DNA from: an uncultured Clostridia bacterium
GTDB lineage: Bacteria > Bacillota > Clostridia > TANB77 > CAG-508
Assembly (NCBI GenBank): GCA_934167735.1
Contig: CAKPLV010000001.1
Span: 1 to 32,931 of the forward strand
Length of the DNA: 32,931 nucleotides
Direction: 5' to 3'
The notes beneath the pieces were generated by a model. That model searched no databases. It worked only from the letters and a program-made list of their open reading frames with translations, and was not told the origin of the DNA. Within the stretch, counting starts at the first letter, position 1; the number at the start of each line of letters is the position of its first letter. Below, in pieces: positions 11,657 to 14,814 of this stretch. Position numbers and translations under genes: made by a program.

Positions 11657-12085
11657 TTACATTTTTGCTGCAACATCTAAAATTCCTAATTGTATATTTT
11701 TTAAATACATTACTTCTATTACTGAAATTATAATAAATACAATTAGTAATTTAAACAATTTTTGAACAGCTTCTTTTTTACTTATTTCATCAAATTTAGT
11801 ATTACTAAATACTTTTGCAATATATGGCATTAATACTATACCATTTATTGGTGTAAATACCATTACTAATATTTTGCTAACTTCGTGTCTTACTTCATCT
11901 GTTATATAATTCATTCCTCTAGCTGAAAGTGAAAATAAAATACTTGTAATTAGCCAACATACTAAAATTCCTGCTGCACAAAATATAACTCTTTCCATTC
12001 CTTCAAACGCTTCTAATCTATACCATGTAAATCCTACTAGCACTATAAATAATGCTATTACAACTATAATTATAAATGAAGTCAT
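11657..12085 (-). CDS. Small integral membrane protein (about 4 TM), unknown function
   Basis: The ORF-track start at 12115 lies inside mutL. The ATG at 12085 has an AGGAGA RBS 6 nt upstream and begins the first TM (MTSFIIIVVIALFIV), so the shorter 142-aa form is preferred. Confidence 0.6.
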   Translation of the reverse strand: MTSFIIIVVIALFIVLVGFTWYRLEAFEGMERVIFCAAGILVCWLITSILFSLSARGMNYITDEVRHEVSKILVMVFTPINGIVLMPYIAKVFSNTKFDEISKKEAVQKLFKLLIVFIIISVIEVMYLKNIQLGILDVAAKM

Positions 12086-12101
12086 TTTTATTCTCCTATC
12101 T

Positions 12102-14516
12102 TTATTTTCTTGCAAATTTTCTTTCTATATCATATTTTGACATTTTTATTGCTGATGATTTTCCATTAGGACAATTAAATGGATTTGGCCATGACAATAA
12201 TGTATCTAGTAAACGTTCTATATCTGATTGTGTTGTAAGTGTTTGCTCATTTTCTGCTACTTTATGTGCTACTGCTGAAAGGAATTTTTCTTCTACTTCT
12301 TTTTTTGCATTTCTTGATACTGAATTTATTTCTTCTAGTACTTCAATAAACATTTCTTTTGTTTCTAGTTCTAAGCACATTTCTGGTACTCCTGTTAATT
12401 TGATTGTGTTTTCTCCAAATTCTTCTACCATAAATCCTGCTTTTCTAAACATTTTCATATTGTCTTTTGCAATTTCCATTTGTTTTCTATTTAATGTTAT
12501 TATGTCTGGTAATAACATTAATTGAGAATCTTTATTTTCATCATCATAATAGTTTTCTCTTATCTTGTCATATATTAATTTTTCTTTTGCAAGATTTTGA
12601 TCTATTATGTACATTTCTTTGTCTATTTCTACAACAATGTAACTGTCAAATATCAAACCAATGTATTTATATGTAGGTTTTTGATATTCTTCTATATTGT
12701 CAAACATTGATATATTATTACCAAGTTCAGCAATATCATCTACTTCTGTTTTTTCTTCTTCTGGTTTTATTTCATTTTCTTCACTAACAGGTTTTGTACC
12801 AAATAATTTTAAATACATTTCTTCAAATTCTTTTGAGAATCCTGAATTTTCTTCTTTTTCTTCCTTCTGAATTGTATCCACACTATAATGTGTTTCTTCC
12901 TCTTGTACTTGTGGTTCTTCTTGTATTTGTGGTACAACAGGCTCAACCTTTGGCTCTATTACTGTTTTTACTATTTTCTCTAGTTCTGGCTCTATTACCG
13001 GTTTTACTATTTCCTCTTTCTTTGTTTCTATTATAGGTTCTTCAATTGTAGTTACTTCTTCTGGTTTTATTTGAATTGTGTCTTGTTCTTCAGGTATTTC
13101 ATTTAAAATTACTTCTTCTTTTATTTCATGTTTTTCTTCTTGTACAATTTCTGCTTTTGGTTCTTCTATTATTTCATGATTTTTTTCTGTTTCTTCTAAT
13201 TTTGCTTTTAATTCTGGTGATTCTTGTATTAATTTTTCTTTCATTTCTTGAAGTTTTTTTAGTACTTCTTGACTTTTTTGTATTTCAGGAATTGATGTGT
13301 CTATTTCTTCTACTTTTGCTACATTTTCAACATTTCCTGGTTCTACAACTTTTTCTACTGTTTCCACTTTTTCTACTTTGTTTACAGTAGGCATTGGCAC
13401 ACTTCTTGGTATTGAAGGTATTCCATTTAATTGTCTTGCTTTATATATTTGTTCAACTATTGTTTCTACTTTTTCTTTATTTTCGAAAAGTCTATTTTCT
13501 ATTTTTTTAGGTTCTGTTGTACTTATTTCTGCTTGTTCTAGCGTATCTTTTATTGCATGATATACAGCTTTAAATACTCTATTTTCTTCTTCAAATCTAA
13601 CTTCTAGTTTTGCTGGATGAACATTAACATCTACTTTACTTGGGTTCATTTCAAGATTTAATACTAAAAAGCTAAATTTACCCATTGGTATTATTCCTTT
13701 ATATGCTCTTTCTGCTGCTGATGTTAATGACTTGTCTCTAACATATCTTTTATTTACAAAAAATATTTGACTAGATCTGTTTGAACGAGCTATGTCTGGT
13801 TTTCCAATTACTCCACAAACACGAATATCTTCATATTCGTAATTTACATCTATAACTGATTTTGCAATATCTTTTCCATATATACTATATATTACAGTTT
13901 TTAGATCTCCATTTCCATTTGTTTGAATTGCTATTTTTCCAGAATTAATTAATTTTATTGATATTTCTGGATGTACTAATGCTATTCTTGTTATAACATC
14001 TTCTATATATCCTGCTTCTGTATAATCTTTCTTTAGGAATTTGTATCTTACTGGTGTATTATAAAATAAATTGCTTACAGTTATTGATGTTCCAACTGGT
14101 GTTCCTACTTCTGTTTTTTCTAGTATTTTTCCACCTTCTACAACTACTTTATATCCATTTGTTTGTGTAGCCGTTTTTGAAATCATTTCAACTTTTGCTA
14201 TTGAAGCAATACTTGCCAATGCTTCTCCTCTGAACCCCATTGATGTAACAGTGTTTAAGTCATCTGCTGATCTTATTTTACTTGTTGCATGTCTTTCAAA
14301 TGCTATTTCTAAATCGTCTTCAGCAATTCCTTTTCCATTATCTGTTACTCTTATATATGAGATTCCTCCATTTTTTATTTCTACTGTTATATTTGTTGCT
14401 CCTGCATCAATTGAGTTTTCTACCATTTCTTTTATTACTGATGATGGTCTTTCTATAACTTCTCCTGCAGCTATTTTGTTTATTGTTAAATCATCTAATA
14501 ATACTATGTTACCCAT
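12102..14516 (-). CDS. mutL: DNA mismatch repair protein MutL with extended acidic linker and non-canonical endonuclease motifs
   Basis: GHKL ATPase motifs: ENSIDAGAT, DNGKGI, GFRGEALASI, GTSITV. C-terminal dimerisation domain carries the clamp motif QLMLLP. Preferred start is the second ATG (MGNIVLLDD, 14516), 9 nt from GGAAGGA. The ORF-track start at 14525 abuts the RBS. Confidence 0.9.
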   Translation of the reverse strand: MGNIVLLDDLTINKIAAGEVIERPSSVIKEMVENSIDAGATNITVEIKNGGISYIRVTDNGKGIAEDDLEIAFERHATSKIRSADDLNTVTSMGFRGEALASIASIAKVEMISKTATQTNGYKVVVEGGKILEKTEVGTPVGTSITVSNLFYNTPVRYKFLKKDYTEAGYIEDVITRIALVHPEISIKLINSGKIAIQTNGNGDLKTVIYSIYGKDIAKSVIDVNYEYEDIRVCGVIGKPDIARSNRSSQIFFVNKRYVRDKSLTSAAERAYKGIIPMGKFSFLVLNLEMNPSKVDVNVHPAKLEVRFEEENRVFKAVYHAIKDTLEQAEISTTEPKKIENRLFENKEKVETIVEQIYKARQLNGIPSIPRSVPMPTVNKVEKVETVEKVVEPGNVENVAKVEEIDTSIPEIQKSQEVLKKLQEMKEKLIQESPELKAKLEETEKNHEIIEEPKAEIVQEEKHEIKEEVILNEIPEEQDTIQIKPEEVTTIEEPIIETKKEEIVKPVIEPELEKIVKTVIEPKVEPVVPQIQEEPQVQEEETHYSVDTIQKEEKEENSGFSKEFEEMYLKLFGTKPVSEENEIKPEEEKTEVDDIAELGNNISMFDNIEEYQKPTYKYIGLIFDSYIVVEIDKEMYIIDQNLAKEKLIYDKIRENYYDDENKDSQLMLLPDIITLNRKQMEIAKDNMKMFRKAGFMVEEFGENTIKLTGVPEMCLELETKEMFIEVLEEINSVSRNAKKEVEEKFLSAVAHKVAENEQTLTTQSDIERLLDTLLSWPNPFNCPNGKSSAIKMSKYDIERKFARK

Positions 14517-14584
14517 TTTTTTCATTCCTTCCTAAGTACAATTCAGTTTTTACTGCTTTTCTTATGCTATTTTATTACTCTTGT

Positions 14585-14613: not shown

Positions 14614-14814
14614 GTATTTTTTCTATATTTTCAACTTAATAATCACTATTAAATAATAATTTTGTTACAATATTCATTTTTATTTTTTTCATTGTAACAC
14701 AAGAAATTTTTTTCGTATATATTTTTGTAACATTTTTTTCCATAAACCATATTATATATTATCAAAAGAAAAATTACAGAGTTTAAATTTTCTTAATTGA
14801 AAGGGGGGTTTTAT

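Follow-up and report, generated by a model that had tools for sequence, protein, structure and literature searches.

The window analysed here, a stretch of 32,931 nucleotides, is contig C1 (CAKPLV010000001.1) of a metagenome-assembled genome (MAG) from an uncultured Clostridia bacterium, which we call G000 (1.27 Mb in 277 contigs, 66% complete, 1.2% contamination, 26% G+C). It encodes a homologue of the mismatch repair protein MutL with a degenerate endonuclease site, and we describe this gene together with a second MutL, with canonical nuclease motifs, encoded elsewhere in the same genome. The window gene, mutL-L, is an open reading frame (ORF) on the minus strand at positions 12102–14525, and all of its parts given below lie on that strand. 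Its translation, 807 amino acids plus a stop, is the long MutL paralogue, L; relatives begin at the Met of MGNIVLL, which is residue 4 of the window protein. Three Pfam domains, all exceeding their gathering cut-offs, follow one another in the order expected of the MutL/MLH family: HATPase_c_3 (E = 1.9e-14), DNA_mis_repair (E = 3.3e-39) and MutL_C (E = 2e-25). Orthologues of 711–984 amino acids, adjoining miaA, are present in almost all genomes of the genus.

The N-terminal GHKL ATPase and transducer domain (NTD) spans residues 1–340 (13506–14525; Pfam stretches 25–127 and 212–329), and the Bergerat-fold motifs of the ATP site, KEMVENSIDAG, TDNGKG and MGFRGEALASI, are all present in the translation. 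It is followed by a disordered linker of low complexity, rich in E, K, P and V, at approximately residues 341–604 (~260 amino acids; 12714–13505). The C-terminal dimerisation and ‘endonuclease’ domain (CTD), residues 605–807 (12105–12713), has an intact fold and a degenerate active site, as judged by HMMER, AlphaFold2 and Foldseek.

MutL endonucleases of Firmicutes carry the motifs DQHA(X)2E(X)4E, ACR/SCK, C(P/N)HGRP and FXR. The first three are altered in the window protein, which reads DQNLAKEKLIYD, AHK and CPNGKS against DQHAAQERIKYE, SCK and CPHGRP in Bacillus subtilis. In motif I (D642–D653, 12602–12567) Asn replaces the zinc-ligand His and Asp the last Glu, with the middle Glu unchanged. 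In motif II (12261–12269), AHK stands for ACK/SCK, with the zinc-ligand Cys replaced by His754 (codon 12266–12264). In motif III (C785–S790, 12156–12173) the Cys is kept, the His has become Asn, the catalytic Arg has become Lys and the Pro has become Ser. In B. subtilis numbering the changes are H464N, C573H and H606N, so that three of five zinc ligands are replaced, while E468 and C604 are retained. The β-clamp motif QLMLLP (QXX[L/I]XP; 12507–12524) is intact, and the protein ends in FARK (12105–12116), the FXR motif that closes the tail KYDIERKF[A/S]RK. The spacing between H754 and C785 is 31 residues, equal to that between C573 and C604 of B. subtilis.

These observations bear out most of an original prediction made from the letters of the window. 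It had placed Asn at both metal-binding His positions and His at the motif Cys, with FAR retained, the clamp motif intact, the 31-residue spacing of B. subtilis, and an ATPase domain of normal appearance; HMMER and MAFFT alignment, the translation and the Bergerat-fold motifs agree with it on each point, and its positions for the three motifs follow by arithmetic from a start at 14525. It had also called for an alignment with characterised CTDs, in case the canonical ligands lay elsewhere in the domain. HMMER aligned residues 620–806 with the B. subtilis MutL CTD (3gab/3kdg/3kdk, E = 2e-16), pairing DQN with DQH, AHK with SCK, CPNGKS with CPHGRP and FAR with FKR, and MAFFT, applied to the window protein and more than 110 relatives, gave identical motif columns. 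An AlphaFold2 model of residues 608–807 had a predicted local distance difference test score (pLDDT) of 84.9, and its top Protein Data Bank matches in Foldseek were the B. subtilis MutL CTD structures, with template modelling (TM) scores of 0.74–0.79. As the model is matched best by these structures, no alternative register moves the ligands elsewhere.

The altered positions correspond to residues that have been mutated in other MutL proteins. Yeast Pms1 H703A, which changes the His of DQHA, is endonuclease inactive (PMC3814310), and C573S combined with C604S is the standard inactive form of the B. subtilis CTD (PMC4678855), the study that also defined the QXX[L/I]XP clamp-binding motif. Aquifex MutL uses the Arg of CPHGRP in catalysis, and its R406K form retains partial activity (PMC10366529). 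By homology to these mutated residues, the window protein is predicted to be unable to cut DNA.

A search of the whole G000 bin with the MutL_C model detected two more pieces, on contigs C263 and C120. The end of C263 encodes a MutL NTD and linker and runs into ‘...LIDQHAAHER’; the start of C120 encodes ‘...FIATVACKAAVKANMDL...NPFTCPHGRPTTIKMTKDEIIKKLDKEGKI’, which covers ACKAAVKAN and CPHGRPT. Together these pieces are a second, shorter MutL, here termed S, with fully canonical nuclease motifs and no FxR tail. The G+C content of the S contigs (0.24–0.25) fits that of the genome (0.264 ± 0.021), and in the S and L trees the two G000 proteins group with the same species, in corresponding clades. 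The possibility of a second mutL, raised with the original prediction, is thus realised in the same genome, and a canonical copy would have left the one in the window free to lose its site. The accompanying searches for mutS and mutH gave opposite results. MutS1 is present as fragments on C163 and C88, with a second, weaker MutS_V match on C185, and no MutH-family protein (PF02976) was found in G000 (66% complete) or in 13 of 14 near-complete relatives, on which ground we reject a MutH-type takeover of nicking. The sole MutH-family match among those 14 relatives is a 463-amino-acid ORF with two MutH/Sau3AI-type domains (G052, contig C2, 115863–116837), most likely a Sau3AI-like restriction enzyme.

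We then extended the comparison to 338 species genomes of the genus, all MAGs or species representatives with a mean completeness of ~90%; relatives among them come from human, goat, sheep and deer gut samples. L (711–984 amino acids) is found in nearly all of them, and ~52 additionally carry S (557–640 amino acids). The linker, strongly variable in length among relatives of the window L, measures only ~30–90 residues in S. Both copies were retrieved from all ~52 two-copy genomes and their motif columns tabulated. Every readable S has DQHA[A/G]HER.LYE, ACK, CPHGRP and the clamp motif. L in these genomes is degenerate in 30 cases and canonical in 22, so S does not force the decay of L. In one-copy genomes, L was canonical in 20 of 20 sampled and in all outgroups in the motif table. 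Two DNA-pattern scans of all 338 genomes (CPHGRP; DQHA[A/G]HE), with G112 and G241 checked separately, showed a degenerate L in only one (G105) of ~276 one-copy genomes with a MutL, and an in-frame stop in only one other (G320). The motif columns are invariant in 37 canonical L, in 47 S and in six of six order-level outgroups; the substitutions at these same columns in the window protein are therefore not noise.

The replacements themselves differ from species to species. Canonical L and S proteins all have the motif I His (100%), in none of the degenerate L columns is it the most frequent residue, and the motif II Cys position is occupied by S, K, N, E, Q or F in other degenerate copies. The closest relatives of the window protein read DQNAANEKIMYE/ASK/CPHGRP (G004), DQQ/ASK/CLHGKP (G003), DQK/ACK/CTNGKS (G101) and DQH/ANK/CPCGKS (G132), and more distant degenerate copies read NQRKAKERILYE/AKK/NSKGNP, DIYLAQERILYE/AEN/TESGIS and NERVARERIIFD/AEE/YVPNKQ. 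The Asn/His/Asn pattern of the window, whose conservation in its clade was to be checked, is thus absent even from the closest relatives. This diversity reads as free drift after constraint was lost, and not as a coordinated alteration towards a new ligand set. On the L tree, built from the NTD, the canonical or degenerate state requires at least eight changes, all within S-bearing clades, with replacements that differ by lineage. The association between S and decay of L rests on the raw counts and on these repeated, differently worded losses.

The two paralogues also differ at their extreme C-termini. KF[A/S]RK ends every complete L frame, degenerate or canonical alike, with the exception of G013 (KFARR). 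Outgroup MutLs at family, order and class level all have FxR; the readable S copies alone lack it, and their tails are variable (...ELFKDFK, ...EELLKINN, ...EYLEEHL). Every copy of either paralogue has the clamp motif. None of the ~52 two-copy genomes has lost L, and S without L was seen only in the assembly of G106, which is 86% complete. The retention of L in all of these two-copy genomes, with an invariant tail, suggests that something in L is indispensable.

Per-column conservation was compared between 31 degenerate and 37 canonical L domains. Conservation collapses in the degenerate set at window residues 644–647, 750–764 and 784–790 and at a few scattered columns. The segments YKFIGI, QxxLLPD, FGENTIKLTGVP and the last 16 residues, AIKMSKYDIERKF[A/S]RK, remain at least 90% conserved. 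Pairwise ratios of nonsynonymous to synonymous substitution (dN/dS, Nei–Gojobori, close species) were 0.02–0.17 for the NTD of degenerate L and 0.07–0.40, typically ~0.1, for its CTD; the CTD of canonical L gave 0.01–0.04, the CTD of S 0.02–0.09 in most pairs and up to 0.26, and the L linker 0.3–0.8. Purifying selection acts on both genes. Taken together, the ratios and the confined loss of conservation argue that L is functional and that its active site alone has been freed from selection. S, with motifs that are 100% conserved and a dN/dS mostly below 0.1, is expected to have a working site.

In a rooted tree of 84 rows with a class-level outgroup, S forms a single clade (100/100) on a stem of 0.49, sister to a clade of L and three other sampled genera of the family (98/86), and a further split (98/96) sets S and the family MutLs apart from the order's remaining families. 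The NTD of S is 55–58% identical to the MutL of its own family and 42–51% identical to MutL elsewhere in the class. This position and the family-level similarity suggest that S is a fast-evolving paralogue born in or near this lineage. An unrooted tree that placed S outside the order-level outgroups reflected a rooting artefact. A distant horizontal import can be rejected on the sister position, on the greater similarity to the family's own MutL, and since a 250-genome sample of the class yielded no S-like protein. The reading of S as a mobile-element gene is likewise rejected: phage and plasmid records yielded no close relative (best 45% identity), and two annotated S loci had no integrase-like neighbours.

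Within the genus, S seems to spread between species by recombination. In the species pairs L096/L099 (G052/G045), L100/L098 (G148/G211) and L040/L039 (G003/G004), the S gene and 3–5 kb upstream are 95–98% identical, compared with 75–87% for the L loci, and the synonymous divergence of S is ~10 times lower than that of L. The first two pairs show a single clean boundary of this block, at the stop codon of S; in G003/G004 the similarity continues as rearranged pieces. A conserved neighbourhood or a link to mutS was looked for at the S loci and not found. In G003/G004, S lies directly downstream of genes for Ham1 (ITPase), NUDIX and a second Ham1 (L039:6377–8126, G004), which are nucleotide-pool sanitising enzymes; its neighbours in other clades are unrelated to these.

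Several genomes depart from the general distribution. G105 (95% complete) has a fully degenerate L (AQK / NSNVNP, gene in L049), and neither S nor MutS1 was found in its assembly, where the sole MutS_I match is a 137-amino-acid ORF scoring 31.6 bits; all other members of its clade have S. A lineage that is naturally deficient in repair and has still kept L is one possible reading of G105. At ~90% mean completeness, missing contigs would be expected to produce one exception of each kind, as seen with G105 and G106. In G091 (L110:2925–4674) and G240 (L109:2895–4644), a shared 1-nt insertion in S at YKFIGIS, giving ATCCGGAATT for ATCGGAATT, splits the gene into ORFs of 404 and 195 amino acids, and L is degenerate in both species; this clade may have no intact MutL nuclease at all, or its CTD may be produced separately. 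L is split in G017/L047 (231 + 634 amino acids), G104/L052 (441 + 409) and G043/L119 (228 + 637), has a TGA inside CPHGRP in G320 (L067), and in G125 (L141) only a 262-amino-acid C-terminal piece of S is open. Such genes, each interrupted in a single assembly, are either pseudogenes or errors in the low-complexity linker.

Four genomes (G141, G198, G081 and G096; 91–98% complete) have MutS1 of full or near full length (870–885 amino acids in three), and no MutL of either kind was detected in them. Small ORFs of 83–190 amino acids that match only the MutS domain I model (23–50 bits) occur up to five times per genome, with stand-alone examples in G096 (C21, C14, C1, C12), G141 (C8, C2, C16, C1), G081 (C38), G198 (C47) and G105 (C3). 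Elsewhere in the class, candidate two-MutL lineages (G357, G431, G597, G365 and G539) were rejected, their extra matches being mostly split hits of a single gene. The exception, in another family, is a 655-amino-acid stop-to-stop ORF on contig C2 of G597 (L204) with a MutL_C match, ACHK, CPHGRP and FKR. We saw no DQHA motif or recognisable ATPase N-terminus in it, and a normal-looking MutL fragment lies on another contig; the ORF may be another divergent MutL paralogue.

In the window, a 152-amino-acid ORF (11657–12115, minus strand), for which membrane helices are predicted and Pfam gave no match, lies between mutL-L and miaA and overlaps the end of mutL-L, stop included, by 14 nt, which suggests translational coupling. 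This ORF, miaA and an HlyD-family gene follow downstream of mutL-L on the same strand. Upstream are a divergent VWA/pilin-like gene and mreB, so that, as originally predicted, no mutS lies there. As to the separate promoter originally predicted for mutL-L, two −35/−10-like sites are present at 14634–14585, but the region is no richer in such sites than shuffled sequence (22 compared with 21.6).

L is very probably nuclease-dead, with S as its backup. How the two proteins work together is a separate matter. We favour, at a probability of roughly one half, a heterodimer of L and S with one composite active site, by analogy with eukaryotic MutLα. MLH1 lacks the nuclease motifs and ends exactly in a conserved FERC, a tail that in yeast contributes to the Pms1 active site and whose deletion abolishes nicking, and the C-terminal ends of Pms1/PMS2 are variable (PMC3814310). 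The complementary losses described here, of metal ligands in L and of FxR in S, match this pattern. The cutting role of L would have passed to S, which would contribute the metal ligands and the cutting site; the FxR tail at the C-terminus and further non-catalytic functions would come from L, in the way that MLH1 serves PMS1/PMS2. Like MLH1, degenerate L has no complete metal-ligand motifs alongside an intact ATPase and CTD fold, it terminates in F-x-R-x without extension, and it shares its genome, in G000 and across the ~52 species, with a catalytic paralogue of variable C-terminus. Common descent with eukaryotic MLH1 is not seen, as L groups with MutL proteins from its own family and order, with S as its sister; any likeness is convergent. 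The fuller proposal, that the genus independently evolved a MutLα-like heterodimer from a bacterial homodimer, with S dependent on the FxR of L, the L site lost at least eight times and all stages still alive, is more tentative, with odds somewhat below even.

A number of observations weigh against a composite site. The interaction of L with S is deduced from the complementary losses, and the role of FxR in trans is transferred from yeast. S and L are never adjacent or co-operonic, the neighbourhood of S varies between clades, and its apparent movement between species is unusual for an obligate partner. L is fully canonical beside S in 22 species, and G105 keeps a degenerate L in an assembly with neither S nor MutS1. 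An independent-pair sign test of S presence against L degeneracy had only four usable pairs and no power. Finally, the window L retains C604, E468 and a His in place of C573, with which some residual metal binding is possible.

The strongest alternative, which we regard as possible and clearly less likely than the heterodimer, is that L and S form two separate homodimers, S2 being the mismatch repair nickase and L2 a non-nicking protein kept for another job. This job would need the ATPase, clamp binding, linker and tail, and might be MutS-coupled signalling, anti-recombination, or clamp loading or blocking. Several of the observations above speak for this arrangement: each protein has its own clamp motif and a full ATPase, both genes are under purifying selection, they are unlinked and S moves between species independently of L, L is canonical in 22 two-copy species, and G105, with no S or MutS1 detected, still has a degenerate L. 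Such an arrangement leaves without explanation the loss of FxR in S alone, against its invariance in nuclease-dead L. We also know of no role of bacterial MutL independent of mismatch repair, which counts against a separate job for L2. Furthermore, competition with S2 would be expected from a dead L2 able to bind the clamp and, presumably, MutS, and metal-ligand mutants of Pms1 are dominant negative (PMC3814310).

Slow decay of a redundant gene is unlikely. L would have become superfluous after S arrived and would be a pseudogene in the making, its active site the first part to go. Consistent with this, the CTD of degenerate L is under ~3- to 5-fold weaker constraint, the replacements appear random, and L is interrupted in single assemblies (G017, G043, G104 and G320). 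The dN/dS values of 0.02–0.17 for the NTD and ~0.1 for the CTD are far from neutral, however, the loss is confined to three active-site segments while the clamp motif and tail stay at 90% or more across independent losses, and L is present in every S-bearing genome except that of G106, at 86% completeness.

The original prediction had left two options, a nicking-deficient MutL or a remodelled metal site. The first is supported; the second, in which Asn/His/Asn and the retained Cys and Glu would bind a different metal in a still active site, is very improbable. The window protein does keep C604, E468 and the motif I Asp, has His, a possible zinc ligand, for C573, and has Lys for the catalytic Arg, a change that leaves Aquifex R406K partly active (PMC10366529). 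Its nearest relatives (G004, G003, G101 and G132) do not share the pattern and carry unlike residues, on which ground we reject this reading; distant degenerate L proteins are without any possible ligands (AEN/TESGIS, AEE/YVPNKQ), and in yeast Pms1 the loss of the DQHA His is by itself inactivating (PMC3814310). An artefact, whether sequencing or assembly errors or a second MutL that is a contaminant of the bin, could be suspected in a MAG as fragmented as G000 with S split on two short contigs, and is effectively dismissed by the nine substitutions in an intact 807-codon frame, which are beyond random error, by the recurrence of L with S in ~50 other species genomes, several in 1–20 contigs (G101, a single contig; G004), by the matching clades of G000 in the S and L trees, and by the fit of the S-contig G+C to the genome.

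The duplications behind the asymmetry of eukaryotic MutL proteins are ancient and have left no surviving intermediates. This genus offers a directly comparable series: ~276 species with one canonical MutL, 22 with two nuclease sites and one copy without FxR, and 30 in which the site has been lost from the tail-bearing copy. If the heterodimer is real, the action of an FxR/FERC tail in trans could be tested with small bacterial proteins, as could the questions of whether one active site per dimer suffices or is preferred for strand-directed nicking, and whether such complexity stems from neutral complementary loss. Even with separate homodimers, a nuclease-dead MutL under strong purifying selection would point to a MutL function independent of cutting.

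Prokaryotic MutL endonucleases are described as homodimers, and heterodimers with a single catalytic subunit only from eukaryotes (PMC10366529). In the literature searched, the only bacterial MutL paralogues were the two mutL genes of Wolbachia, one of them in a prophage module (bioRxiv 10.1101/2024.08.15.608088), for which we found no report there of complementary motif loss; nor was an MLH1–PMS-like split of MutL roles reported for bacteria. E. coli-type MutL, which activates MutH, resembles the window L in having no functional nuclease site while keeping the ATPase and clamp motif. The CTD of the window L, however, is much nearer to the B. subtilis type, retaining FXR and remnants of the other motifs, and the nuclease would come from a MutL paralogue rather than from MutH. 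The homodimeric MutL of B. subtilis (3gab/3kdg/3kdk) shares with L the domain order, the CTD fold (TM 0.74–0.79), the position of the clamp motif and the FXR end, and the canonical L of one-copy relatives are ordinary members of this type. The window L differs from it in lacking three of five zinc ligands and the catalytic Arg, in its ~260-residue linker and in the presence of a paralogue.

Among eukaryotic complexes, yeast MLH1–MLH2 and human MutLβ also include a MutL paralogue, MLH2 or human PMS1, that is functional without endonuclease motifs (PMC4014439, PMC8074049); MLH2 is an extra, accessory partner of MLH1 and not the universal one. The closest parallel is MutLα (MLH1–PMS1 in yeast, MLH1–PMS2 in humans), which likewise comprises two paralogues with intact ATPases and nuclease motifs in one only (PMC3814310, PMC10366529). 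In both systems the non-catalytic partner ends in F-x-R-x (FERC in MLH1, F[A/S]RK in L) and the end of the catalytic partner is variable. The L/S pair, a proposed heterodimer, differs in its independent and recent origin, S being sister to the MutL of its own Clostridia family and not to PMS, in the short linker of the catalytic subunit S, and in the 22 species whose L still has a complete site. On this comparison, L and S would represent a convergent, recent and bacterial counterpart of MutLα, captured at several evolutionary stages.

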